64,000 nt of DNA. Source: an uncultured virus (IMG/VR IMGVR_UViG_3300008964_000003). Its lineage: Duplodnaviria > Heunggongvirae > Uroviricota > Caudoviricetes. The notes beneath the pieces are model-generated. The model searched no databases and was not told where the DNA came from. It saw nothing but the letters and a program-made list of their open reading frames with translations. Shown here in pieces: positions 868 through 58,099 of this stretch. Location of the stretch: IMG/VR virus record IMGVR_UViG_3300008964_000003. The stretch is one strand, 5' to 3'. Position 1 is the stretch's first letter, and each line of letters begins with the position of its first letter. The position numbers were made by a program, and so were the translations under genes.

Positions 868-1535
868 AGATATTCTGCGTAAGAATAGGAAACAAATATG
901 GACCTGAGTACGAAGATTATATTAACTCAAAGCTAAGCAAGCATGAGGTAACCTGGATTCGTGAGCCTTTTCACCCGCACGTTCCTTTGCAGTGGAATAA
1001 GCTTCAAGTGTTTAATATGGATATCTATGAACCCGTAATTGTTATGGACATCGATAAACTGCTTATTAACGACTATGAGGACGTAATCAACTATCCATGC
1101 GAGAAGAATGAATTTGTTTCTATTCCATACTGGTGGAATTTTAATGGCACCCCATTTAAGATGAGTGGTGGATTCTATAAGTTTTGGCCTTCAAGAACAA
1201 AACACATTTATCAAAAGTTTATGAGTGATATATCTTATTATACAAACTACTATATCAAAGCTGGATTAACAAATGGTCCAGTGAATGGCGAGTTTATGTT
1301 CGTTCAAGACAGTCTATATGGAATGGATCTAAAACTCATGCCCGATGCTTGGTTTACCCGCTGGCTAAGTTCAGATGATAAAGAAATGTGCGCTAAACTA
1401 ACTGATAGATATTATGAGGTTACTGGTAATGAATACATCTATAATGGACAGTTTCATCCTGACTTAAAGATTGTTCACTTTACAAATAGTATGAACAAGC
1501 CGCATGAATGGAAAGATTATGACAGATTTATCTGA
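855..1535 (+). CDS. Glycosyltransferase-like protein
   Basis: N-terminal CVRIGNKYGPEY, WNKLQVF, DxD (MDID), C-terminal IVHFT; pattern of phage GT-A proteins. Confidence 0.55.
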   Translation: MGSVKIFCVRIGNKYGPEYEDYINSKLSKHEVTWIREPFHPHVPLQWNKLQVFNMDIYEPVIVMDIDKLLINDYEDVINYPCEKNEFVSIPYWWNFNGTPFKMSGGFYKFWPSRTKHIYQKFMSDISYYTNYYIKAGLTNGPVNGEFMFVQDSLYGMDLKLMPDAWFTRWLSSDDKEMCAKLTDRYYEVTGNEYIYNGQFHPDLKIVHFTNSMNKPHEWKDYDRFI

Positions 1536-1929
1536 TAATAAATTGGGCATAAAATGCCAATGGATGGAAATTAAACGCGCATTAATAAATCATGAAGGTC
1601 AAGTTTTTCCATGCTGTTACTTTGCTAATATAGAATATACCATATCAATTTTGGGAGATGATCCGAATGTATGGGATATTGAGCACTACGGCATTTGGCG
1701 GAAGGGTGACTATGTTGCTAAAAAAAATTATAAAACTTCTCTGCATGAATATATGGAAACTAAAGAAGACCATAATGTTTTTAACCATACGTTAGAAGAA
1801 ATATTAAACAATGAATGGTTTACTAAAACCCTTCCAGAGTCTTGGAATGATGAAGATAAATGCCACAGATTATGCAAAAAGTTCTGTTCAGTAAAATCTG
1901 ATCATAGAGTTGGTTTAAAAAATGAGTAG
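1522..1929 (+). CDS. Stand-alone SPASM/twitch-like Fe-S domain protein
   Basis: C...INHEGQVFPCC...CxxxC at C-terminus; paralog of 3476-3871; start uncertain (1504 or 1522). Confidence 0.7.
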   Translation, partial: TDLSDNKLGIKCQWMEIKRALINHEGQVFPCCYFANIEYTISILGDDPNVWDIEHYGIWRKGDYVAKKNYKTSLHEYMETKEDHNVFNHTLEEILNNEWFTKTLPESWNDEDKCHRLCKKFCSVKSDHRVGLKNE

Positions 1930-2704
1930 CGGCATTTCAAATTTTAATAAACATTATAGCAATAAAGAATCAGTGATATTTTTTGAACTGACAACCCACT
2001 GTAATGCGGGATGCCCACAATGCCATAGAACGAATAGAGATGGTTTGGGAAAGGCAGAATGGATCCCATTAAAACAGTGGACATTAGATAAATTTAAAAA
2101 AGCATTTCCGCCAGAAACGTTAGATAATATTAAATGCATGGAGTTTTGTGGAACGTGGGGTGATCCCATGATGTGCAAAGACGTATTTGAAATTACTGAA
2201 TATATTTTAAATGAATCAAATGCAAATGTATTGTTCAATACCAATGGTAGCATTAGAAATCCAGATTGGTGGTGGAAATTTGGTTTATTAGGCAAAGATC
2301 GTATGACCGTTGTTTGGGCTATCGATGGTTCTACTCAAGAAATGCATAACAAATATAGACAAAACACAAATTTAAGCTTAATTATGGAAAATATGCAATC
2401 ATTCACTGCAGCTGGCGGCATAAGTGTAACATTTACCATCGTGTTTAAACATAATCAAGCGCATTTATATGATATAGCAACTCTAGCAAAAAATAATGGC
2501 GCAGTGTCAGCAACATTTGTGCAATCAAATCGATTCCGGGAGGGAGAGCCCCAATATCATTTTATAGATAGTAAAGGTGAAAGTGATTATTTAGAACAAT
2601 CTTCGCTGAAAAATGACAGGGATTTTTATTGGCAAAATTTTAATTTAAATAATGAAGATGACATTAAAAAAATAAAACAAGAATCTAAAGATGGTATATC
2701 ATGA
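1922..2704 (+). CDS. Radical SAM protein (no fused SPASM)
   Basis: CxxxCxxC (CNAGCPQC), GTWGDP, NTNGS, AIDG. Confidence 0.9.
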   Translation: MSSGISNFNKHYSNKESVIFFELTTHCNAGCPQCHRTNRDGLGKAEWIPLKQWTLDKFKKAFPPETLDNIKCMEFCGTWGDPMMCKDVFEITEYILNESNANVLFNTNGSIRNPDWWWKFGLLGKDRMTVVWAIDGSTQEMHNKYRQNTNLSLIMENMQSFTAAGGISVTFTIVFKHNQAHLYDIATLAKNNGAVSATFVQSNRFREGEPQYHFIDSKGESDYLEQSSLKNDRDFYWQNFNLNNEDDIKKIKQESKDGIS

Positions 2705-3492
2705 GACTCATATCAGATGAACAATTTTATAACTATGATGAGTTATATAATAAAAATGAGTTAAGTCTGTGGCTCGACATTTCTACACACTGTAATGCTA
2801 AATGTCCTCAATGCCATAGAACGGATGCTAATGGCTTACAAAAAGTCGATTGGTTACCTGTTATTCAATGGTCAACTGAAGAGTTTAAAAAAGCGTTTAC
2901 TCCTAAAAACTTAAGCCATATCGACAGGATTGATATTTGTGGTACATGGGGAGATCCCATGATGAATAAAGATATATTTGAAATTGTAAAATATATCATG
3001 AATAATTCTAAATGTAAAATATTAATTAATACCAATGGTAGTATTAGGAATGCTGATTGGTGGTGGAAATTTGGTTTATTAGGCAGAGAAAGAATCACCG
3101 TTATGTGGGCAATTGATGGTGTTACACAGGATCAGCATTCACTATATCGACAGGATACTAACTTACAGACAGTTCTAGATAATATGGAAACATTTACTGC
3201 TGCCGGAGGTATATCTCAAGTGTTTACCGTTGTGTTTAAACACAATGAAAAAGATATCTACAATCTAGCTTCATTGGTAAAAGAAAAAGGAGCGCAGGAT
3301 ATTTTTTACGTGCCTTCAAATAGATTTAAGAGAGATTCTAATAAATTTGAATTTATCGATAAAGTGGGTGAACTTAAATTTTTAGAAAAATCTTCTTTAG
3401 ATGAAACTAATTCCCCTGGACTTTTTTGGAAAACATTATTCCTTGAAGAAGAGGATAAAATGGAAGTGATACTCAATGCAACACCAAAATAA
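2701..3492 (+). CDS. Radical SAM protein, paralog of 1922-2704
   Basis: CNAKCPQC, GTWGDP, NTNGSIRN.DWWWKFGLLG shared with the preceding ORF. Confidence 0.9.
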   Translation: MRLISDEQFYNYDELYNKNELSLWLDISTHCNAKCPQCHRTDANGLQKVDWLPVIQWSTEEFKKAFTPKNLSHIDRIDICGTWGDPMMNKDIFEIVKYIMNNSKCKILINTNGSIRNADWWWKFGLLGRERITVMWAIDGVTQDQHSLYRQDTNLQTVLDNMETFTAAGGISQVFTVVFKHNEKDIYNLASLVKEKGAQDIFYVPSNRFKRDSNKFEFIDKVGELKFLEKSSLDETNSPGLFWKTLFLEEEDKMEVILNATPK

Positions 3493-3871
3493 ATGTAATA
3501 TTAAATGTGAATGGATGCAGACAAAAAGGGTATTAGTAAATCCTGATGGACAAGTTTTGCCGTGTTGTTTTTTTGCTAATGTTATTTACATGTATGATAG
3601 AATGGGCGCACCGGAAGAATGGACTCCAAAGGCTGAATATGGTATTTCAGATCAATTAATGGATGTTCCAAGAGTCGCACACGAAACTAGCCAAGAAACA
3701 ATTCTTATGGATTATTATAAAAATCGTGAAGAGTATAACATATTCGATAATGACCTAGAAGATATTTTGAACAGTGATTGGTTTAAAAAAACATTACCTG
3801 AATCATGGGAAGATGAAAGTAAACTAGCCAGACAGTGCAAAACATATTGCCAAGTAAAAGATGAAGAGTAA
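3476..3871 (+). CDS. Stand-alone SPASM/twitch-like Fe-S domain protein
   Basis: IKCEW...VNPDGQVLPCC...WFKKTLPESW...QCKTYC; paralog of 1522-1929. Confidence 0.7.
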   Translation: MQHQNKCNIKCEWMQTKRVLVNPDGQVLPCCFFANVIYMYDRMGAPEEWTPKAEYGISDQLMDVPRVAHETSQETILMDYYKNREEYNIFDNDLEDILNSDWFKKTLPESWEDESKLARQCKTYCQVKDEE

Positions 3872-5024
3872 CTTTTGTATTATACCGTGGATCTCAATCA
3901 CATCAGATAATGCTGGATTAGTAAGACCGTGTTGTAAGTTTGCTGAAAAAGATGTTCAAGGAGAATATCAAACACCTAGCCTTAAAGATTATTCGTATGA
4001 GGACATATGGAATGGTCCAGAAATGCAGGCAATTAGGCAAGCATTTTTAGATGATAAAAAGATTCCAGAGTGTTCCTCGTGCTGGAAAGAAGAAGCGGCT
4101 GGATTGACCAGCTATAGAAACCAATATAACTACACCTTTCTTCGACAAATTGATCCAAAAGACTATTCTACAACCTATGCTGAACCACCTAGAGTTGTAG
4201 ATTTAAAACTTAGTAATGTGTGTAATTTTAAATGCCGTATGTGTGATTTTTCATACAGCAGTCTCATACTAAAAGAAGATAAAGCATTTAGAGGTTATGA
4301 TATACCAGATGAATCATATTACCTTTCTAATAAAATATTAAATACTGAAAATGAAGATTACTTCTTTGAAAAAATAGTTCCGAATCTTATTCAGATCGAG
4401 TTTACTGGTGGCGAACCATTTGTAAGTCCCGAAGCTAGGAAGCTAATTGATATATTATCACAATCAGAATATGCTAAAAATATTGCAATCAATATAACAA
4501 CAAATGGTAGTAAAGTAAATACATCAATCTTAAGCCAACTAGAGAAATTTAAATTTGTTAGAATCGGATTAAGTGTTGACGATATTGGCTCTAGAGCGGA
4601 ATACCAAAGGAAAGGTACTGTTTGGGAAACTGTAAGTCATAATTGCAAACTCTTTAATGATAACCAAAAGTTTTATGTAAATCTACATCCAACAGTAAAC
4701 AACTATAGCATATGGAACTTTGATAAAACTTTGGAATGGGCAAAAGAAAACAACATAAGGGTTGTTACAAATATTTTACATGGGCCTGAACGATTGTGCA
4801 TAAAAAATCTTAGTGCGTATAGTAAGTCTAAGGTTTATGAGAAACATAAAGATAATAAATCTATGGTTAACATTCTTTCATATATGATGCAAGATGGCGA
4901 GGATCTTACTGAAGATTTTATTCAAGAAACCACATTGGTAGATAGTATTAGAAATGAAAGCTTTAAGGAAGTTTTTCCTGATTGGAGTGAGATAATTTAT
5001 GGCTCTTTGCAAAGCCCCAGTTAA
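3861..5024 (+). CDS. Radical SAM protein with N-terminal twitch/SPASM-like domain
   Basis: FCIIPW...GLVRPCC...CSSCW, then CNFKCRMC, GGEPF, TTNGS. Confidence 0.9.
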   Translation: MKSNFCIIPWISITSDNAGLVRPCCKFAEKDVQGEYQTPSLKDYSYEDIWNGPEMQAIRQAFLDDKKIPECSSCWKEEAAGLTSYRNQYNYTFLRQIDPKDYSTTYAEPPRVVDLKLSNVCNFKCRMCDFSYSSLILKEDKAFRGYDIPDESYYLSNKILNTENEDYFFEKIVPNLIQIEFTGGEPFVSPEARKLIDILSQSEYAKNIAINITTNGSKVNTSILSQLEKFKFVRIGLSVDDIGSRAEYQRKGTVWETVSHNCKLFNDNQKFYVNLHPTVNNYSIWNFDKTLEWAKENNIRVVTNILHGPERLCIKNLSAYSKSKVYEKHKDNKSMVNILSYMMQDGEDLTEDFIQETTLVDSIRNESFKEVFPDWSEIIYGSLQSPS

Positions 5025-6000
5025 CAATATGTACTTTACTGTCCATGGAACGGTAGCGCCGTGCTGGTTAACGGTGGGAGCTATTGATCGTTGGAGCCCT
5101 ACTCATTCTATAAGCGATATTTGGTTTGGTGAAAAATACCAACAGATTAGAGACAATATTGCTAACGATATTTTTAAAGGTAAATGTGCTGAGTGTAAAA
5201 AAGATATTGATAATGGTGTTTGGCCATTAGCTAAAGCATACGACCAATTTACAGTAAAAAAATATCCAAGCCTGATGGAACTTGAGTTAAGTAATCAATG
5301 TAATCTCGAATGTGTAATGTGTTCTGGAACTTTAAGTTCTGGTATTCGCAAGAACCGTGATAAGCTTCCGCCTCTTCCACAAATTTATACAGATGAATTT
5401 AGACAACAGCTTAGGGAGTTTATTCCTCATCTCGAAGAGCTACGATTTAATGGTGGTGAACCATTTGCACAAAAGATTGTTCTTGATATTTGTGAAGACG
5501 TTGCAGAACTAAATCCTGGTCTAAAAGTAAACATTGCTACAAATGGTACAGTGTACAATAAGCGTGTTCAAAAAATTATGGATATGTGCAACATTCATAT
5601 TAATATTTCTATCGACAGTCTCTTACACGACCGCTATAGCGAAATCAGAATTAATGGTGACCTGTCAGTCCTTATGAAGAACTTTGAAATCTTTAATAAA
5701 TATTGTAAAGATGGAAATCGAGACTTGTCTATCATGGTTAACCCAATGAGACAAAATTGGGATGAAATGGTAGAATTTGTTAAATGGACCGATAAACATC
5801 ATGTGAAGTTGTGGTATAATACTATTCGTTATCCTGCCGATTGCGCTATATGGAATTTGCCGTCGGAAAAGTTAAAGGAGATTCATACTAGTCTTCAGGC
5901 AGAACTTGATAGCATTCCGATGACAACCTATAATTATGATAAAGCTGATCATTTGATCAATAGACAGATAGCCAATTGGTTATTAGAAAGTTATGAGTAG
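4999..6000 (+). CDS. Radical SAM protein with N-terminal twitch/SPASM-like domain
   Basis: LCKAP...GTVAPC...CAEC, then CNLECVMC, GGEPF, ATNGT, SIDS. Confidence 0.9.
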   Translation: MALCKAPVNNMYFTVHGTVAPCWLTVGAIDRWSPTHSISDIWFGEKYQQIRDNIANDIFKGKCAECKKDIDNGVWPLAKAYDQFTVKKYPSLMELELSNQCNLECVMCSGTLSSGIRKNRDKLPPLPQIYTDEFRQQLREFIPHLEELRFNGGEPFAQKIVLDICEDVAELNPGLKVNIATNGTVYNKRVQKIMDMCNIHINISIDSLLHDRYSEIRINGDLSVLMKNFEIFNKYCKDGNRDLSIMVNPMRQNWDEMVEFVKWTDKHHVKLWYNTIRYPADCAIWNLPSEKLKEIHTSLQAELDSIPMTTYNYDKADHLINRQIANWLLESYE

Positions 6001-6042
6001 TATACCTCTCCTCCCCCAGAAGTGATACTTCTATTATACACA
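5998..6042. repeat. 45-bp dispersed repeat, copy 1 (copy 2 at 29499-29543)
   Basis: tagtatacYtctcctcccccagaagtNNtacttctattatacaca; 42/45 identical by manual alignment. Confidence 0.9.
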
Positions 6043-6060
6043 GATTTTTAGGATTGTAAA
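6033..6060 (-). promoter_or_regulatory. Early/sigma70-like promoter, leftward
   Basis: Minus strand TTTACA-N16-TATAAT, the same motif found upstream of replication genes. Confidence 0.65.
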
Positions 6061-6066
6061 CAGAAA

Positions 6067-7155
6067 ATGTTATGTCATGCGCCATTTTTAGGAATTACCG
6101 TAGATCCATCTGGATTATTGACATTATGCTGTGCAACAAGTGATAGGGAATATTTTAAAACACATATAGATGATGTAGATGATTTACAAGAATTCTTTTT
6201 GGGTGACAAGTATACTCATGTCAGAAATATTATGAAATCCGAAGGTATAAAAAAACTTCCTCAGTGTTTGCACTGCTGGAAAGCTATAGATGGATATTGG
6301 ACAGAAATTAATAATTATAATGAGAAACAAATACATGATACGCTTCAAGTTTCATATCTAGAATTAACCACAAGCAACACATGTAATCAAACATGCGTCA
6401 CATGTTCCAGTTATTTTAGCTCTAAGTGGAGAAAGATAGAATCTAAATTTGACAGACAGATTCACTCATCATTTCAATTATCAGATTCGGCTATTGATAA
6501 AGTTATTAAAGTCTTACCTGGATTGAAATATCTTCAAATTAAAGGCGGGGAACCGTTTGCTGATAAAAATAATCTTAAAATTTTAAAAGCGCTATCTAAA
6601 GTAAATCCTAAATGCGAAGTTATTATAACAAGCAATTTTCAAAGAATATCCGATGAATGGTATGAAGTGTTAAAACTTCTTCCAAATATAAAGGCTGGCG
6701 CTAGTATTGATGGTATAGATAAAACTTATGACTGGATCCGAGGAGGGTCATTTGAAGATACTATACAAAACTTAGAGAATTTCTATAAAAAAACTGGAAA
6801 TAAAGTTGTTATAAATGTATGCGTTTCTTTGTATAACATATTTCTTTTATCTGATATATTAGATTATTTTAAAAATAAAGAATATGTTTCAGTCACAATA
6901 TTCAATAATATCTTAAACTACCCCAATGAACAATCAATACAATCTTTAGATCCTTTAACTTTGAAAAAAATAGCATTTTCTGAACTTCCTTTTTGGCATA
7001 ACGACTTTGAAAATATAAGAAAAGTAGAATCATTTCCAGAAGATATTAGATTAGGTCTGACAAATAAGTTTATATCACATACGGAAATAATGAATTCAAT
7101 TAGAGGTTTTAATATTTTCGATATTCAACCTAAATTAGCTAATATTTATAAATAA
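6067..7155 (+). CDS. Radical SAM protein with N-terminal twitch/SPASM-like domain
   Basis: LCHAPF...TLCC...CLHCW, then CNQTCVTC, GGEPF, SIDG. Confidence 0.9.
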   Translation: MLCHAPFLGITVDPSGLLTLCCATSDREYFKTHIDDVDDLQEFFLGDKYTHVRNIMKSEGIKKLPQCLHCWKAIDGYWTEINNYNEKQIHDTLQVSYLELTTSNTCNQTCVTCSSYFSSKWRKIESKFDRQIHSSFQLSDSAIDKVIKVLPGLKYLQIKGGEPFADKNNLKILKALSKVNPKCEVIITSNFQRISDEWYEVLKLLPNIKAGASIDGIDKTYDWIRGGSFEDTIQNLENFYKKTGNKVVINVCVSLYNIFLLSDILDYFKNKEYVSVTIFNNILNYPNEQSIQSLDPLTLKKIAFSELPFWHNDFENIRKVESFPEDIRLGLTNKFISHTEIMNSIRGFNIFDIQPKLANIYK

Positions 7156-25241: not shown

Positions 25242-25754
25242 ATGGCTACCACAGAATCTACATTAGAATCCCAGAACTTCTTACAACCTAATGGGTTTAA
25301 ACTTGTAATTTTAAGGAAGCGTTTCAAGAACTTAGAGTTCTTTGCGCAATCAGTCCAGCATCCAGATGTATCAGTAGCGCCTACGATTGTACAATTCCGT
25401 GGAACAAACTTACTAACTCCAGGAGACAAAATTGAATATGGTCAATTGACTGTAGATGCTATTGTAGATGAGAATATGAATGTATACAAAGAAATGCTCA
25501 ATTGGGTCAAATCTGGCGCTACTATGAAAAACAAGTTAGCAAGCGGAGTTAGAGACGCCGATGAAGATTTGCCGATGTATGATATCACGCTATCAGTCTT
25601 GAGTAGCCATAATAATCAGATAGATAAGATTGTATATCAGGGAGCATTCCCGATCAACGTAGGAACTATCAACTTCCAATCTACGGTTGATAATGTACAG
25701 TACATCACATTCCCAGTCACGTTTGCTTATACGACATTTACAATCACTGACTAA
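25242..25754 (+). CDS. gp3: Tail completion/tube terminator gp3
   Basis: NFLQPNGF, PGDKIEYG.L, VDENM..YKE. Confidence 0.85.
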   Translation: MATTESTLESQNFLQPNGFKLVILRKRFKNLEFFAQSVQHPDVSVAPTIVQFRGTNLLTPGDKIEYGQLTVDAIVDENMNVYKEMLNWVKSGATMKNKLASGVRDADEDLPMYDITLSVLSSHNNQIDKIVYQGAFPINVGTINFQSTVDNVQYITFPVTFAYTTFTITD

Positions 25755-25790
25755 TTTGATATAATGCTATAAAAGCATTAGGAGTATACT

Positions 25791-26237
25791 ATGAAATACC
25801 TTGAACCAGTTATTACTATGTGGGAAAAAGACTGTATTATCAATAATGCGTCATTAGATGAGGCATCTAGGCAGACACCTATGCTTCATGCAAAATACCT
25901 TCCCATGCACGCTGAAGCTAAAATGATGCTTCGTCGAGCACAAATGTCGCAAAAAACTCTATTGAAAGACAAGTGGCTTTACTATAACGGTAAAATGACT
26001 AAAGAAGAAATTGAAGCTAAAGGCTGGGAATTTGATCCGTTTAAAGGACTTAAAGTTCTTAAAGGGGAAATGGATTACTACTATGATGCTGATACTGATA
26101 TTCAGAAATCAGAAGACGAAATTCAGCAATTAAAAGTGTTAGTAGAGACACTACAGGAAATTGTAGATAATATAAAATGGCGCCACCAAACCATAGGTAA
26201 TATGATTAAGTGGCGCATGTTTGAAGCTGGGGGTTAA
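25791..26237 (+). CDS. uvsY: Recombination mediator UvsY
   Basis: P.LHAKYL, KWLYYNGK, YYDADTDI, I.WR; upstream of uvsW. Confidence 0.85.
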   Translation: MKYLEPVITMWEKDCIINNASLDEASRQTPMLHAKYLPMHAEAKMMLRRAQMSQKTLLKDKWLYYNGKMTKEEIEAKGWEFDPFKGLKVLKGEMDYYYDADTDIQKSEDEIQQLKVLVETLQEIVDNIKWRHQTIGNMIKWRMFEAGG

Positions 26238-26622: not shown

Positions 26623-27510
26623 TTATAGTCTTTGCAAATCTAATGTTACGCAGTGGTGACCACCCATAAACATTTTTGCATGCGGCAAATTAACGCCTAT
26701 TGTTTCTATTCCATATTTATCAAATTTTTTTCTTAGAATGGTCTGATTAGAATCGCAGAATATAGTATTTTCATCATAGCTTAAAACATTCATTCCTATC
26801 CAATTACTAGTCATATGATCCCAACCCTTCGGTTGAATCAAGTCTTCTTGTTTTATCCAAATCTTATCCCAAGATTTCATAAAATCTGGTAACTGATATT
26901 CTTTAATTCTTTCTGAATTTAACATGACTAAACCATCTCTAAGAGGAACTATAGTACTATCTAGATGCATTCCCTGATATACTGCATTTAGTCGATGCAC
27001 AATATATTCTGGTCCCAAATAATTTTCTAGCCAATCCGCTCCAGCTTCATTTCCAGAATAGCTTATTAGATATAAAATATCCTTTCCGCATCTAATTATA
27101 TTGGCAGCATCAAATACTGCCGCTGGATCATCAACAGTTGTGACATTGTCTCCTAAAGCAGCGCGGATCGCTTTCCATTCAATTCGGCGATTTGGCCATA
27201 CAGTAGGCGTAAGAATTACTTTATCGCCAATAACTAATGTGGTATCTCTAGGGCAATAACATCCAAAACCGTCTTCTTTTACATAATCAATAGGCTTTGG
27301 TCTAATAACCTCTACTCCTAATTTTTCTAATTCAGCTTGAAATAAATTTAAAGCTTCTTGAGTTTCATGTATGGCGATTGGAGACGCAGGACCAATAGGT
27401 GCCTCATCCCAAGTAGAGTATTCTGGATCATTTTTTGGAAAATTAAAATTTTCGGCTGAACCAAGTATTACTCTTTTTAACCGTGACCATTCGTTATCGC
27501 TACGGATCAT
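26623..27510 (-). CDS. Amidinotransferase (glycine/inosamine-phosphate amidinotransferase family)
   Basis: NEWSRLKRVILG, CPRD, FDAAN, HLDST, GGHHCVTLDL (catalytic Asp/His/Cys); AGGAGA RBS before 27510. Confidence 0.9.
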   Translation of the reverse strand: MIRSDNEWSRLKRVILGSAENFNFPKNDPEYSTWDEAPIGPASPIAIHETQEALNLFQAELEKLGVEVIRPKPIDYVKEDGFGCYCPRDTTLVIGDKVILTPTVWPNRRIEWKAIRAALGDNVTTVDDPAAVFDAANIIRCGKDILYLISYSGNEAGADWLENYLGPEYIVHRLNAVYQGMHLDSTIVPLRDGLVMLNSERIKEYQLPDFMKSWDKIWIKQEDLIQPKGWDHMTSNWIGMNVLSYDENTIFCDSNQTILRKKFDKYGIETIGVNLPHAKMFMGGHHCVTLDLQRL

Positions 27511-27566
27511 ATTATCTCCTATTTCCAACATATATATCTATGAATATAATTTAATAGAGTATTGTT

Positions 27567-29069
27567 ATGGAAATCATTAAAGTTAAAAATAAAAACCACT
27601 CTTTTATGGAAATTACCTGCGATTATGGTATTGCCAATGAGCTTACTGATTTCTTTTCATTTTTTGTGCCTGGCTATAAATTTATGCCGGCGTACAAAAA
27701 TAAAGTCTGGGACGGTAAGATCCGACTATTTAATATTCATAAAATGGAACTACCTGTTGGATTATTTCCATTCTTAGCTGAATTCTCCAAACCTAGAAAA
27801 TATACTATTGAAGTAGAACATAATAATTTTTATGGTCGACCGGATAGTCAAATAGATATTGATCCAAATGAAATTAAAGCATTTGTTGATAGACTAGAGT
27901 TACAATCAAGAGGTAAACCAATTGAAATACGAGACTACCAATTTGACGCAGTTTGCGAAGGACTCCACAGAAAAAGAGCAGTACTTATTTCACCAACGGG
28001 CTCTGGCAAGTCTCTTATCATCTACACACTCGTCCAAAGATATTTACTTTCTCTTAGGAAGGCAAACAGGAAAGTCTTGGTTATTGTACCAACGACTTCG
28101 CTGGTTGAGCAAATGTATAACGACTTCGCAGATTATGGAATGCCTGTCGAAGACTGCGTCCACAGGATTTATTCTGGACGAGATAAAGAGACCGATAAAG
28201 AAATTATCATTTCAACCTGGCAGTCAATTTACAAACTGCCACCGAAATGGTTTGAACAATTCGGTGCTGTCATTGGTGACGAATGTCATGGCTTTAAATC
28301 AAAGTCTCTCACCACTATTATGGATAAATGCAAAGAAGCCGAATATCGTTGGGGAACAACAGGTACACTTGACGGTTCTCAAACCCATGAACTCGTATTA
28401 CAAGGGCTTTTTGGGAAGATATATAATGTAACAACAACAAAGAAACTTCAAGATGAAGATACACTTGCTAAACTCAAGATCTCTATACTTTTACTCAAAT
28501 ATGATGAAGAGATCCGTCGAAATTGGGGTAAACAAGATTATCAAGCTGAACTGGATTTCATTGTTCGAAACGAGTCTCGTAATAAGCTCATTTCTAATCT
28601 CGCTTTGGATCTTGATGGCAATACTCTCGTACTATTTAATTTTGTAGAAAAACATGGTAAACCTTTGTTTGAAATGATTCGAGACAAAGCCCATGAAAAC
28701 AGAAAAATCTTTTTTGTATCTGGTGAAACCGCCACGAGTGACCGTGAAGCAATTCGTAAGATCGTAGAAGGACAAAAGAATGCTATCATTGTTGCTAGTC
28801 TTGGCACTTTCTCCACTGGGATTAATATTAGGAATTTGCATAATATCGTATTTGCATCCCCATCCAAGTCTCAAATCAGAGTTCTCCAATCAATTGGACG
28901 AGGACTCAGAAAATCAGACGACGGATCTATAGCACAACTTTACGATATTGCTGATGACTTACATTGGGGACATAGGAAGAATTACACATTAGAACACTCA
29001 GCAGAACGTGTTAAGATGTATGCTAAACAAGAATTTGACTACAAAATTTACGAGATAGATATAAAGTAA
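27567..29069 (+). CDS. uvsW: UvsW helicase
   Basis: SPTGSGKS, DECH, QSIGRGLR; WDGKIRLF N-terminus. Confidence 0.96.
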   Translation: MEIIKVKNKNHSFMEITCDYGIANELTDFFSFFVPGYKFMPAYKNKVWDGKIRLFNIHKMELPVGLFPFLAEFSKPRKYTIEVEHNNFYGRPDSQIDIDPNEIKAFVDRLELQSRGKPIEIRDYQFDAVCEGLHRKRAVLISPTGSGKSLIIYTLVQRYLLSLRKANRKVLVIVPTTSLVEQMYNDFADYGMPVEDCVHRIYSGRDKETDKEIIISTWQSIYKLPPKWFEQFGAVIGDECHGFKSKSLTTIMDKCKEAEYRWGTTGTLDGSQTHELVLQGLFGKIYNVTTTKKLQDEDTLAKLKISILLLKYDEEIRRNWGKQDYQAELDFIVRNESRNKLISNLALDLDGNTLVLFNFVEKHGKPLFEMIRDKAHENRKIFFVSGETATSDREAIRKIVEGQKNAIIVASLGTFSTGINIRNLHNIVFASPSKSQIRVLQSIGRGLRKSDDGSIAQLYDIADDLHWGHRKNYTLEHSAERVKMYAKQEFDYKIYEIDIK

Positions 29070-29087: not shown

Positions 29088-29498
29088 ATGGTAGCTAACG
29101 TAAAACAAATGAAGCTTATCACTGGAGAAGAAATTCTTTGCGATTTGACTGAAGCTTTATACGATGAGGAAGATGGAATTGAGCATACGTTACTTCTCAG
29201 ATCAGCTTATACATTAGTATCCCACGAAGATTTTGAGAATCAAATAAGGTATTATACCTTTAAACCTTTCATGATGCATTTGTATGAGCCAAATAAAGTA
29301 TTAGCTCTTAATGCACATTCAGTTATTTGTATGGTTCAGCCGGATAAAAAAGTGATTGATCAGTATGATGAACATATTTCACAGTTTAATTTCGATGAAA
29401 GCGCTGAAGAAGACGAAGATCCATTAGCGGTACCGGAAGATGATGAACCGACGAATAATAAAGTCCTAAAGTTTAAGCCAAAGGATAAGCTGCATTAA
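29088..29498 (+). CDS. Conserved T4-like hypothetical protein (Sm-like?)
   Basis: KLITGEEILC N-terminus; lies between uvsW and gp55. Confidence 0.55.
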   Translation: MVANVKQMKLITGEEILCDLTEALYDEEDGIEHTLLLRSAYTLVSHEDFENQIRYYTFKPFMMHLYEPNKVLALNAHSVICMVQPDKKVIDQYDEHISQFNFDESAEEDEDPLAVPEDDEPTNNKVLKFKPKDKLH

Positions 29499-29543
29499 TA
29501 GTATACTTCTCCTCCCCCAGAAGTATTACTTCTATTATACACA
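29499..29543. repeat. 45-bp dispersed repeat, copy 2
   Basis: Near-identical to 5998-6042; overlaps a minus-strand TGTACA-N16-TATAAT at 29534-29561. Confidence 0.9.
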
Positions 29544-29594
29544 CATTACCAGATATGTACACATAAAAATGCGCATATCATTAAAATAATTTGA

Positions 29595-29623
29595 TTTACT
29601 TACCCTAAGAGCTGATGTATAAT
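29595..29623 (+). promoter_or_regulatory. Early/middle promoter for gp55
   Basis: TTTACT-N17-TATAAT. Confidence 0.65.
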
Positions 29624-29648: not shown

Positions 29649-30254
29649 ATGAAACCTAAAGATAGACCACACTACGTTAATAATAAAGAGTTTTCACTTG
29701 CAGTCGTTGACTATGTCAAGAGTGTAACTGAAGCAAAGGAAGCTGGAACAGAGATTCCGAAGGTGACTAACTACATTGCACAGTCATTTCTACGAATAGC
29801 TGAAGGACTTTCACACAGGGCAAATTTCATCAGATACACATACCGAGATGAGATGGTAATGGATGCTGTTGAAAATTGTCTTAAAGCAATTAATAACTAT
29901 AATATTGATGCACCTACACGCACGGGTATGCCTAATGCGTTTTCCTATTTTACACAAATTTCTTGGTATGCTTTCTTGCATCGTATTGCAAAGGAAAAGA
30001 AGCAACAAGATATTAAGATGAAATACATTTCACAATCCCCATTTGAAGACTTTGCAGTTGAAGGCGCTGATGAAGCCAGTATTCAAGCAGGGCATGCTTT
30101 CATCGATCAGCTAAAAGGCAAGATTGATCAGTTGAAAGAAAAAGATACTTACTTTGATGTGAAGTATAAAGAAGAGGCCAAAGCAGCAAAGTTGCGCAAA
30201 AAGCGCGTGGTGAGCTCTAACGACTCTGATCTTAGCACCATTTTTGGAGACTAA
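29649..30254 (+). CDS. gp55: Late sigma factor gp55
   Basis: HYVNNKEF, NFIRYTYRDEMVMD, NAFSYFTQI. Confidence 0.96.
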   Translation: MKPKDRPHYVNNKEFSLAVVDYVKSVTEAKEAGTEIPKVTNYIAQSFLRIAEGLSHRANFIRYTYRDEMVMDAVENCLKAINNYNIDAPTRTGMPNAFSYFTQISWYAFLHRIAKEKKQQDIKMKYISQSPFEDFAVEGADEASIQAGHAFIDQLKGKIDQLKEKDTYFDVKYKEEAKAAKLRKKRVVSSNDSDLSTIFGD

Positions 30255-46720: not shown

Positions 46721-47140
46721 ATGAAAGTTGGATTTACTTGTAGCACATTTGACTTGCTTCACGCCGGGCATATTATGATGCTGCGCGAAGCCAAGGCTCA
46801 ATGTGATTATCTTATTTGCGGACTACAGGTCGATCCGAGTTACGATAGACCTGAGAAGAATAAACCCGTTCAGACTATTGTAGAAAGATACGCACAACTA
46901 TCGGCAGTGAAATATGTTGATGAGATTGTAGTATATCATTCTGAACAAGATCTCCTAGATATTCTAGAAATGTATCCAATTAATATTCGTATTCTAGGAG
47001 AAGAATATAAAGAAAAAGAGTTTACAGGCAAAGATATTTGTCGTAAAATAGGTATTGAGTTCCACTTCAACAAACGGAACCATAGATTTTCATCATCTGG
47101 ACTTAGAAAGAGAGTAGCTGATAATGCTAAAAGTGACTGA
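46721..47140 (+). CDS. Cytidylyltransferase (TagD/glycerol-3-phosphate CT-like)
   Basis: FDLLHAGH, LICGLQ.DP, VKYVDEI, R.H.FSSS; AGGA RBS before 46721. Confidence 0.88.
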   Translation: MKVGFTCSTFDLLHAGHIMMLREAKAQCDYLICGLQVDPSYDRPEKNKPVQTIVERYAQLSAVKYVDEIVVYHSEQDLLDILEMYPINIRILGEEYKEKEFTGKDICRKIGIEFHFNKRNHRFSSSGLRKRVADNAKSD

Positions 47141-47798
47141 TATTCGTGACCACTTCTTTGACGAACTGGACGCCCAGCGATATACCATTGATAAAACTGG
47201 TGCCAAGACTATTGAGATGCTAGGTGCATCATTCATCGCCGATGAACCATCCATCTTCGGCATTCCTAATCAAGAATACATTGATAAAGAGATTGCTTGG
47301 TACGAGTCTCAGTCTACTAACATCTACGATATTAACACAGAGTCCGGTGCTGATGCTCCTGCTGCTTGGAAGTATTCAGCAGATAAGTATGGTAATATCA
47401 ATTCAAACTACGGATATCTTGTAGACTCTCCAAAGTTTTATAATCAGTACTATAACGCCATTGCCGAGTTGATTGCGAATCCAGATAGCCGGCGTGCTCA
47501 GATGATTTATAATCGTCCCTCTATTTGGGCTGAGTACAACGAAAATGGTAAATCTGATTTTATCTGTACTAATGCTCAAACATTTTATATTCGTGATAAT
47601 AAACTGCATATGGTATCGCAAATGCGTTCTAATGATGTAGTATTTGGCTATAAGAATGATTACGCTTGGGCACAACATCTTATGGATCGTGCTATTGATA
47701 ATCTAAATGAAGAAGGTTATGAACTTACAAAAGGTGACCTGATCTGGCAAGTAATGAACTTGCATGTATATGAAAGACATTTTAATTTAGTAGTTTAA
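47124..47798 (+). CDS. gp42: dCMP hydroxymethylase-like (T4 gp42 family)
   Basis: NSNYG, DSRRA, DFICT, MRSNDVVFGYKNDYAW, LHVYERHF; Asp at the cytosine-specificity position. Confidence 0.85.
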   Translation: MLKVTDIRDHFFDELDAQRYTIDKTGAKTIEMLGASFIADEPSIFGIPNQEYIDKEIAWYESQSTNIYDINTESGADAPAAWKYSADKYGNINSNYGYLVDSPKFYNQYYNAIAELIANPDSRRAQMIYNRPSIWAEYNENGKSDFICTNAQTFYIRDNKLHMVSQMRSNDVVFGYKNDYAWAQHLMDRAIDNLNEEGYELTKGDLIWQVMNLHVYERHFNLVV

Positions 47799-55405: not shown

Positions 55406-56098
55406 ATGAAATTTGCAAATGAGGCTATGAAAGCCTATTTGGTTGTGCAACCAGCACCAGCAGAAGAATTTAAGGAGCACTTCAATGACGCACTCGAGCT
55501 TATTGCCTACTGTGCCAGAGTATCTAACCCAGCTAACCAGTTCAACAAAGACACCGGAGAAAGACTTGTCCGATATCTCGTCAAGCACAAACACTGGTCA
55601 CCACTCGAAATGTGCAACGCCACAATCGGGATCGACACAACGCGGGACATCGCGCGGCAAATCCTCCGACACAGAAGCTTCTACTTTCAGGAATTTAGCC
55701 AGCGCTACGCCGATCCTAACGACCTTGATGTTTCCTTTGTTCTAAGAGAAGCGCGTCTACAAGATCCGAAGAATCGTCAGAATAGTATTGAAAGTGACGA
55801 TCTTGAATTGCAAAAAGCTTGGGTAATGAAACAAACCCAGATTATTCATGAAGCAAAACTAGCGTATCAATGGGCAATTATGAATGGTATTGCAAAAGAA
55901 CAGGCACGTTGTGTTCTTCCTGAAGGCAATACTGTAAGCAAGGTGTATATGAATGGAACACTTCGTTCTTGGGTTCATTACATTGAACTACGCTCAGGTA
56001 ACGGAACACAGAAAGAACACATTGAAGTTGCGCGTGAAGTTGCTAAGGCAATCGCTAAGATCTTCCCAATGGTAGAGGAATTTGTACATGATGAATAG
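55406..56098 (+). CDS. thyX: Flavin-dependent thymidylate synthase
   Basis: HWSPLE, QILRHRSF.FQEFSQRY, EQAR.VLP, R...TQKEH. Confidence 0.95.
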   Translation: MKFANEAMKAYLVVQPAPAEEFKEHFNDALELIAYCARVSNPANQFNKDTGERLVRYLVKHKHWSPLEMCNATIGIDTTRDIARQILRHRSFYFQEFSQRYADPNDLDVSFVLREARLQDPKNRQNSIESDDLELQKAWVMKQTQIIHEAKLAYQWAIMNGIAKEQARCVLPEGNTVSKVYMNGTLRSWVHYIELRSGNGTQKEHIEVAREVAKAIAKIFPMVEEFVHDE

Positions 56099-57613: not shown

Positions 57614-57649
57614 TTTAAAAGTCACAGTATTAAAACTATAATATAGGGG

Positions 57650-57678
57650 TTTACTTAATCCATCCTTTATGTTAATAT
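57650..57678 (+). promoter_or_regulatory. Putative promoter of the tmRNA gene
   Basis: TTTACT-N17-TAATAT. Confidence 0.5.
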
Positions 57679-57684
57679 ATAACC

Positions 57685-58070
57685 TGTAAACGTTGAAGCA
57701 ACGTGGACACATTCTGGACCTGGGGGCGGTACCCAGCGACTCCACCATAAGGATACACAATGAAACAATATTCAAAAGAATATTTAGAGTTTGAACTGAA
57801 ACACACTAAAGAGTTGGTAGAACTTCATCATAACACAAGAGATGAAGAATTGAGACTTCAAATTTTAGAAGTTAGAAAAACTCTTGAGCGTATCTTTTTG
57901 ATGGGGTCGAAATTAGGATCGACAGGTGTGAAAGTGAAAGTGGAGTTTACCGGATGACTGCGTTATTGGTCAATTAAACTAAATGCAAATGAAAATTTCG
58001 CACCTACAGGTTACGCCCTAGCGGCATAATGCTGGTGGGTATGAGCACCACCTAGAAACAGAACGGACTC
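57685..58070 (+). ncRNA. ssrA: Circularly permuted two-piece tmRNA (alphaproteobacterial type)
   Basis: Acceptor piece first: T-arm CTGGG-GGCGGTA-CCCAG, CGACTCC-A-CCA ending at 57747. Coding piece from GGGGTCG at 57903 gives a 7-bp stem with G3.U70. Tag ANENFAPTGYALAA* at 57985-58029. Outer ends approximate. Confidence 0.92.
57760..57957 (+). CDS. ORF in tmRNA intervening segment, reading into the tmRNA 5' end
   Basis: AAGGA RBS directly after the CCA; 65 codons. Confidence 0.5.
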   Translation: MKQYSKEYLEFELKHTKELVELHHNTRDEELRLQILEVRKTLERIFLMGSKLGSTGVKVKVEFTG

Positions 58071-58099
58071 GCAACAACTTTAATTTTATAGGACTAAAA

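Follow-up and report, generated by a model that had tools for sequence, protein, structure and literature searches.

A Backward-Facing Promoter with an Inverted Repeat Across Its Predicted Start Site Behind the uvsW Unit of T4-like Phages, and Its Possible Role as a Replication Origin

Why would a phage place a consensus host promoter at the end of a gene, facing back into that gene and with no gene of its own behind it, and do so at two distant sites? The question was raised by a sequence-only reading of the window, which is the whole 64,000-nucleotide stretch of DNA analyzed here, from an uncultured virus of the Caudoviricetes. That reading offered three options: a promoter-primed R-loop origin of replication, a decoy for small RNAs, or antisense control of the upstream gene.

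Two copies of the element in one phage

The window was found to encode a T4-like phage, with neck, tail, and head genes, uvsY, uvsW, gp55, gp47/46, and the T4-type replisome genes gp43, gp45, gp44/62, gp41, primase, UvsX, UvsY, and UvsW. A permuted tmRNA of the alphaproteobacterial type (57647-58073, tag ANENFAPTGYALAA) suggests an alphaproteobacterial host group. The features that concern the two copies are as follows.

4999-6000, plus strand: radical SAM/SPASM gene, with copy 1 directly at its stop codon
5998-6060, minus strand: element copy 1, whole, between two co-oriented radical SAM genes
5999-6017, minus strand: G-clustered block GGGGGAGGAG, then (A)GGTATACT, the first ~20 nt of the predicted RNA of copy 1
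6018-6032, no strand assigned: inverted repeat AGAAGT-n3-ACTTCT of copy 1, its first base directly after the -10 and its loop over the predicted start
6033-6038, minus strand: -10 TATAAT of copy 1, with a 16-nt spacer from the -35
6055-6060, minus strand: -35 TTTACA of copy 1
6067-7155, plus strand: radical SAM/SPASM gene, starting 6 nt from the -35 of copy 1
25791-26237, plus strand: UvsY gene, with its own early promoter at 25737-25765
27567-29069, plus strand: UvsW helicase gene
29088-29498, plus strand: Sm-like protein gene, a relative of PDB 3BY7 (E 0.018; profile E 1e-13)
29499-29561, minus strand: element copy 2, whole, at the site past uvsW and the Sm-like gene that is shared across the family
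29509-29518, minus strand: G block of copy 2
29519-29533, minus strand: inverted repeat of copy 2, in the same order as in copy 1
29534-29539, minus strand: -10 of copy 2
29556-29561, minus strand: -35 TGTACA of copy 2, with a 16-nt spacer
29595-29623, plus strand: gp55 promoter of the sigma70 type, set back to back with copy 2
29649-30254, plus strand: gp55 late sigma factor gene, downstream of the copy 2 site

The alignment of 5998-6042 with 29499-29543 matched 42 of 45 bases, which agrees with the initial description of a 45-bp repeat with three mismatches, 23.5 kb apart and at a plus-strand stop each time. About 2e-11 such pairs would be expected by chance in 64 kb. Both copies also have the minus-strand order that had been described, -35, N16, TATAAT, AGAAGT-n3-ACTTCT, and GGGGGAGGAG; (A/G)GTATACT and the stop codon of the plus-strand gene come next. 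Two of the mismatches fall in the 3-nt loop and the third (G/A) past the G block. Copy 1 begins within the TAG of its upstream ORF, and copy 2 begins one base past the TAA of the Sm-like ORF. Transcription from copy 1 would start near 6026, as judged from the spacing and from a conserved TGT at positions 6-8 in named phages. The claim that no start codon follows the Shine-Dalgarno (SD)-like run at copy 1 was borne out. At copy 2, an ATG lies 13 nt past GGAG, but it is the complement of the last His codon of the upstream gene and opens a frame of only nine codons.

A promoter scan of the copy 1 site found no adjoining forward promoter. No third copy was found in 132 kb of this phage (G001 and G002; genome estimated at 170 kb), nor among 37 sequence-collection matches to the -10 plus inverted repeat. 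An intrinsic terminator (GC-rich stem plus U tract) was not called at either copy on either strand, and an Rfam gathering-score scan of the window returned two tmRNA models only, leaving the element unmatched. Four RNA sequencing runs, which consist of assembled contigs without strand, end, or expression information, included near-identical pieces over the head genes at 21-24 kb; among the pieces listed, 29.5 kb was uncovered, and these runs are silent on strand and expression.

Several other observations were made in the window. In comparisons with sister strains (29499-29530 with locus L267, and 5935-6062 with L249), the copies lie at the border of near-identical and more diverged blocks, as if recombination tracts stop there. 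The tail-fibre region at 1504-7155 contains a cluster of radical SAM and free-standing SPASM genes. Between uvsY and uvsW, a minus-strand gene (26623-27531) has a weak arginine deiminase-like match, and a late promoter in front of it was not found; a resembling gene is headed directly by the element in locus L019, and the backward promoter might also feed the gene in the window through a 2-kb leader. The Sm-like gene is labelled "methylamine utilization" in cyanophage records, and 3BY7 is described as a pentameric Sm-like protein (PMC3710371). The Sm-like core gene has an acidic tail and, in members from proteobacterial phages, a conserved C-terminal ..(L/I/V/F)H motif. Additionally, the intervening segment of the tmRNA includes a 65-codon ORF (57760-57957) without a Pfam match, and two different thymidylate synthase-like genes are present (47124-47798 and 55406-56098).

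Conservation behind the uvsW and Sm-like genes

An exact-motif search of viral contigs returned 13 matches, all of this phage population and with identical flanks save in one strain, and therefore yielded no covariation. A blastn search of the element against cultured phages gave chance matches only. Exact searches reached only this population; the family was found only via synteny, in a set of 80 gp55 loci (57-73% identity, the best 80 of 592) plus C48C1, of which 74 have the Sm-like gene. Within these 74 loci, a reverse promoter was found behind the uvsW and Sm-like unit in 71, so that the architecture is conserved in relatives and the letters are not; absence of conservation was one of the findings that the sequence-only reading had named as counting against the element. 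The promoter ends 27-40 nt from the Sm-like stop codon in 62 of the 74 and lies behind an inserted gene in a further nine. The misses at the fixed site were L041 and L088, which lack the element, and L030, where it was recognized by eye only and has a weak -35. With three -35 variants allowed, the -35/17/-10 score was perfect in 47 of the same 74 loci; both the score and the distance limits were fixed after the list of loci had been inspected. The spacer is 17 nt in 58 of 62 related elements, and the 16-nt spacer of the window was accordingly rejected as a family trait.

Sixteen named phage records were considered: a set of 12 (ten Kyanoviridae isolates including S-PM2, P-SSM4, and HTVC008M, one single-cell genome, and Cygsa01) together with Syn9, DLP6, phiM12, and Cr30. 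The element was present in 15 of them, including Syn9, S-PM2, HTVC008M, phiM12, Cr30, and DLP6. The sole miss was Pseudomonas phage Cygsa01, which has a different gene order and no clear element before gp55. In Cr30 the element is still behind the Sm-like gene with gp55 3.6 kb off, and an adjoining forward promoter is absent at 20 of 85 elements; hence the element belongs to the end of the uvsW unit rather than to gp55. Where both promoters occur, they overlap in eight of 65 loci.

In whole-contig scans, nearly all consensus promoters among those listed head genes. The recurring exception, a gene-less reverse promoter with a GC block, is this element in each of the nine scanned sequences that could be scored from the promoters listed. 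It was not seen among the promoters listed for G007, the contig that holds the missing locus L041. The copy 1 site is occupied in one relative as well (L251 in contig G011, radical SAM gene 47% identical), and G011 has the element at both sites. For the radical SAM gene at 6067, 15 related loci were identified, six of them from this phage or a sister strain; of the nine distant ones, only L251 has the element among the seven listed. Taken together, this sequence conservation marks a real cis element that is family-wide. A separate observation was made about 2 kb upstream of gp55 in three loci (L043, L051, and L070), where a second consensus reverse promoter lies inside the uvsW coding sequence; its -10 coincides with the codons that follow Walker A, and it may be due to chance.

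Inverted repeat, G-clustered block, and additional copies

The conserved core of the element is a predicted promoter plus an inverted repeat across the putative start site, with letters that differ between phages. The first base of the repeat directly follows the -10, and its loop covers the predicted start. For example, the arms are AGAAGT/ACTTCT in this phage, ATAAAA/TTTTAT in G011, TCAGG/CCTGA in DLP6, CAGGA/TCCTG in phiM12, AGGC/GCCT in HTVC008M, and AACC/GGTT in S-RIM2. At least four Watson-Crick pairs were found in 17 of 56 non-redundant uncultured elements and in seven of 13 named ones, in contrast to 11 of 122 ordinary forward promoters; shuffling gave 5%, and none of 200 shuffles matched the observed values. 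Strand-wise folding favored neither strand, and RNA folding was weak on both, with a z of only -0.1 to -0.4 for the transcribed part. A fold in DNA rather than RNA is indicated because the arms differ between phages and no strand is preferred. In addition, the left arm consists of the six bases that separate the -10 from the start site, and the promoter's own RNA cannot hold it because it lies upstream of the start. A DNA fold or a bound protein would thus be the simpler reading of the repeat.

If a protein is bound, the element could be an operator for a dimeric phage protein, or its fold could park the sigma70 holoenzyme, so that one to three promoters are switched together and the backward one competes with the gp55 promoter. 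This is improbable. Such a regulon would fit the repeat's lack of strand preference and the conservation between copies of ~20 nt after the -10 while spacers drift (seven of 14 genomes; G011, Syn9, phiM12, and Cr30), and in three contigs of another phage group (L444, L446, and L453) a forward promoter with the same AGAAGT-n3-ACTTCT after its -10 heads an ORF beside gp55/gp47. Gene conversion could equally keep copies alike, however, and no candidate binding protein was found. The repeat is also 12-17 bp in total length with the -10, not a centre, as its anchor, and most operators are not of variable length anchored in this way.

The block that follows the repeat is usually G-clustered: GGGG occurs in 32 of 56 uncultured elements versus none of 122 control promoters. 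For SD matches the excess over controls is modest (43 of 56 elements versus 77 of 122). The block is C-rich instead in eight of the 56, and it is absent in DLP6 and phiM12. As far as its distribution can tell, neither a ribosome site nor an sRNA decoy is conserved in the block. An ATG or GTG is within reach in 67 of 85 elements, but it comes from the C-terminal His codon of the Sm-like gene, which is retained even where the element has moved behind another gene. The resulting antisense ORFs (1-299 codons, median 11) are short and unrelated, and an antisense ORF from the His codon was rejected. Long-range pairing with the gp55 ribosome site was also rejected, as the spacers are not complementary and 20 of the 85 elements have no forward promoter. 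In locus L019 the copy on the uvsW side heads a captured 299-codon gene, and the element can therefore act as a normal leader.

The decoy option, in which the RNA would act in trans on anti-SD sequences or on CCUCCUCCC-motif sRNAs, perhaps with the Sm-like protein, is the least probable of the readings weighed here. The Cuckoo/CcsR family, which carries CCUCCUCCC, is an sRNA system of alphaproteobacteria, the host group to which the tmRNA points, and the G block of this phage is complementary to it at eight of nine bases. An Sm-like gene lies upstream, a possible fold of the minus-strand RNA has GGGGGAGG in its loop, and the G/A difference between the copies preserves pairing on the minus strand. 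The complement is not conserved in the family, however: at least seven of the nine bases are complementary in only seven of 56 uncultured elements and in none of 13 named ones, the sister strain at L267 breaks it (GGGGGTGGAG), and the C-rich variants and the phages without a G block count against a decoy as well. The hairpin with GGGGGAGG in its loop was not general across elements. Moreover, the folding scores are near zero, no terminator delimits an RNA, no Rfam model matches at the gathering score, and the element is present in cyanophages too.

It is also very improbable that the element is a signal at the 3' end of the plus-strand mRNA (for termination, Rho loading, or processing) or the vestigial leader of a lost gene or tiny antisense ORF. 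Its distance of 27-40 nt from the stop codon, its likeness to ordinary early leaders minus the ATG, and the ATG/GTG within reach in 67 of 85 would agree with this. The U tract expected after a hairpin is absent, and the perfect -35/17/-10 kept in 47 of the 74 loci (from the best 80 of 592) is unneeded for decay or a 3'-end signal. A vestige is further opposed by the unrelated antisense ORFs and by the origin of their ATG/GTG in the His codon.

The number of copies per genome ranges from one to three and is often two or three. Of 14 genomes or contigs, seven had a second or third promoter sharing ~20 nt after the -10, with scores of 8-20 (background near -4, sd 3), and Syn9, G011, phiM12, and Cr30 were further multi-copy cases. 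A paralog was absent in the other seven of the 14, including the complete C48C1 and HTVC008M. Copies within a genome are alike and those between genomes are different, with a drifting spacer. The 14 extra copies occur in either orientation to genes, and ten run with their neighbouring genes. Four face a gene end and are gene-less (in the window, G011, and two in phiM12), seven head an ORF 24-59 nt downstream (S-PM2, two in S-RIM2, P-SSM4, Syn9, G004, and G006), and three run with genes but have at least 150 nt of non-coding DNA behind them (S-SKS1 and two in Cr30). In S-SKS1, the second copy (minus strand, near 169,865) has behind it a further -10 and an ORF resembling the start of a superfamily 2 helicase.

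The 194.7-kb genome of phiM12 has its copies at 22.2, 84.4, and 156.3 kb, where they stand back to back with gp55, the gp33-gp59-gp32 cluster, and nrdJ; phiM7, phiM19, and phiN3 likewise have them at three places. Those of Cr30 are at 25.1, 75.3, and 118.9 kb of 156 kb. The near-thirds spacing of the three gene-less copies gave P values of 0.004 (phiM12) and 0.026 (Cr30) against random points in a test devised after the positions had been seen; S-RIM2 gave 0.16. In six two-copy phages the copies are 0.35-0.42 genome apart, largely via shared gene order, and in the window and G011 they are only 0.14 genome apart.

Both phiM12 and Cr30 have 140-230 nt of non-coding, hairpin-rich DNA between promoter and gene. 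The motif GAGCG(A/T)AGCGA is on the non-template strand of all six of their copies and nowhere else in both genomes (three in phiM12, where 0.17 are expected, and three in Cr30). Mini-hairpins of the GCGNAGC type sit at the priming sites of G4, St-1, and RSF1010 ssiA (PMC13037366). Neither this phage nor any of the marine elements examined has the motif, which is common in unrelated phages, with only four of 121 loci near a T4 core gene; it therefore supports an origin only for the phiM12 and Cr30 groups. As a marker of T4-like phages, its occurrence near TATAAT was rejected for lack of specificity. In 19 of the 121 viral loci (L305, L324, L326, L334, L347, and others) the motif lies exactly 2 nt past TATAAT with GC-rich hairpins following and no T4 core gene nearby, possibly another promoter-plus-hairpin family. 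Additionally, three ~130-nt non-coding, hairpin-rich repeats behind the Cr30 copies (L300, L302, and L303) could be a structured RNA or a single-strand DNA signal.

The orientation of the copies bears on antisense or collision control, the last of the three initial options. An early backward transcript would dampen uvsW and the Sm-like gene (at copy 1, the radical SAM operon) or block read-through into gp55, and the inverted repeat would only tune or time the promoter. For the copy behind uvsW and the Sm-like gene this is a serious rival, and overall the main one, though well short of an even chance. In every case the fixed copy is directed at the 3' end of the uvsW unit, which it follows also where genes are inserted, the two promoters overlap in the eight of 65 loci, and no terminator-like site was found between uvsW and gp55 on either strand of the window. 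T4 is described as keeping UvsW late (PMC3016281), whereas uvsY and uvsW carry early-type promoters in the window. Productive transcription is possible, as in L019, and a cyanomyovirus antisense RNA, CfrI, provides a precedent (PMC2984593). Antisense control leaves unexplained the ten of 14 extra copies that run with their neighbouring genes, the G clusters beyond SD needs, and the even spacing, and it is opposed by the 20 of 85 elements without a forward promoter beside them and by the long non-coding DNA before the gene in phiM12 and Cr30. The antisense and origin readings need not exclude each other, because the primer of T4 oriF is also an mRNA.

A candidate origin and its relation to known systems

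The element is best read, at somewhat short of an even chance, as a replication origin primed from a promoter, akin to T4 oriF/oriG but adapted to phages without MotA. Support for this reading is circumstantial. In the parts of PMC3016281 consulted, oriF and oriG are described as combining a promoter with an unwinding element, with RNA that enters an R-loop and primes leading-strand synthesis; oriE is described as running from an early promoter, and late UvsW as dismantling origin R-loops. In the T4 record, oriF lies ~880 bp behind uvsW on the opposite strand and faces it, with the uvsY transcript as primer. In the branch studied here uvsY is in front of uvsW, yet the gene-less backward promoter stays behind the unit, the pattern that would be expected if it were retained for a role in cis.

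On this reading, host RNA polymerase would open the element's promoter right after injection. After ~10 nt of RNA the non-template strand would fold on the inverted repeat and block re-annealing, and the untranslated G-rich RNA would remain paired to the template as a short R-loop. Then gp43/gp45 would extend the primer leftwards and gp59/gp41/gp61 would load on the displaced strand, with late shut-off through the gp55 switch and UvsW, which is encoded next to the element; copy 1 would be a second origin of the same phage. The sequence itself provides the consensus sigma70 promoter (matched at both copies and family-wide), the lack of a gene behind it, the inverted repeat, the G clusters, and the fixed place facing uvsW, and the steps beyond the promoter are conjectural. 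A short R-loop with a non-template hairpin is proposed because untranslated G-rich nascent RNA is reported to favor R-loops (PMC3977913) and because the first 20 nt favor an RNA:DNA hybrid (at or below the 5th percentile) in 16 of 23 copies, both window copies included, as computed from energy tables and without a control promoter set. The region from +20 to +120 mostly disfavors a long hybrid in the 23 copies.

Several results count against an origin. None of 12 sequences had a turn in cumulative GC/AT skew or four-fold-site skew at the element, and a fork primed there would run against most transcription, which is itself a point against. An A+T-rich unwinding element downstream was not consistent across the 23 copies: six had +20 to +120 in the top AT decile, and the window copies were at percentiles 0.45 and 0.82. 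Transcription can run on, as seven of the 14 extra copies and L019 head ORFs. The C-rich block in eight of 56 elements, the missing G block in phiM12 and DLP6, and the presence of at least four pairs in only a third of uncultured elements count against it as well.

A more specific proposal is that these one to three sites are the unmapped origins of a T4-like branch (cyanomyoviruses, pelagimyophages, phiM12, Cr30, and DLP6) and rely on a type of fold that has no description in T4, in which the discriminator strand would pair with +5 to +10 in initial transcription, lock the bubble, and leave a ~20-nt primer, with no activator or long unwinding element. This is tentative and rather doubtful as it stands.

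A literature search, which extended to the accessible parts of PMC2984593, PMC3037559, PMC7029224, PMC5349666, PMC5082946, PMC5931967, and PMC12152347, found no description of the element there. Published work on the Syn9 genome and its start sites may already mark the element as a start site or predicted origin, and the supplements of PMC5082946 and PMC5931967 could bear on antisense transcription. A single theta origin is predicted for Syn9, its place not given in the text consulted (PMC2984593), and promoters were predicted by software only in what was seen of PMC3037559 and PMC7029224. T4-like marine phages lack the MotA system needed by T4's best-known origins, and their replication start sites are unmapped. 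The element gives exact coordinates in cultured phages with workable hosts (Syn9, S-PM2, S-RIM2, phiM12, and Cr30); in Syn9 the copies are at ~123.7 and ~52.8 kb, and in S-PM2 at ~84.4 and ~162.8 kb. If antisense control were true, it would be a conserved timing device for UvsW or gp55 in one of the most abundant phage groups, and either outcome bears on whether an inverted repeat at the start site alters the behaviour of a sigma70 promoter.

Among known systems, CfrI of cyanophage S-PM2 resembles what the element would give: in a T4-like marine phage, transcription that starts past the 3' end of a gene and runs back into it. CfrI is a 225-nt RNA at psbA/F-CphI, whereas the element is at uvsW/Sm-like/gp55 and at the radical SAM cluster; unlike CfrI, it is family-wide and has sense-oriented paralogs. 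The origins of G4, St-1, and alpha3, RSF1010 ssiA, and the N4 virion promoters have a likeness in the GCGNAGC or CCGAAGG-type mini-hairpins on the would-be displaced strand of phiM12 and Cr30. Unlike in those priming signals, such hairpins are absent from this phage and other marine members, and the element is tied to a double-stranded sigma70 promoter. The PeSL cassettes of T4-type phages are numerous duplicated early-promoter units with an upstream stem-loop, which head genes at several places. Duplication of early-promoter units within one genome is a shared trait, but the element has only one to three copies, the fixed one is gene-less, and its repeat lies over the start site.

The element resembles T4 oriF, oriG, and oriE in the predicted host RNA polymerase promoter at its core, the several copies around a circularly permuted genome, and the encoded UvsW. 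Like oriF, the fixed copy faces uvsW from just downstream, and like oriE it has an early promoter. Unlike oriF and oriG, it has no MotA-type middle promoter, and a full -35 hexamer stands where the MotA box would be; cyanomyoviruses are described as lacking motA and asiA (PMC2984593). It further differs from T4 origins in being usually a gene-less promoter and in lacking a consistent A+T-rich unwinding element. Neither an inverted repeat across the start nor G clusters are among the features described for T4 origins in the parts of PMC3016281 consulted, and the copies share sequence, whereas T4 origins are described there as sharing no motif. The element is thus not of the MotA-dependent oriF/oriG class in the strict sense, and as a candidate origin it can work like oriF or oriE without being one.
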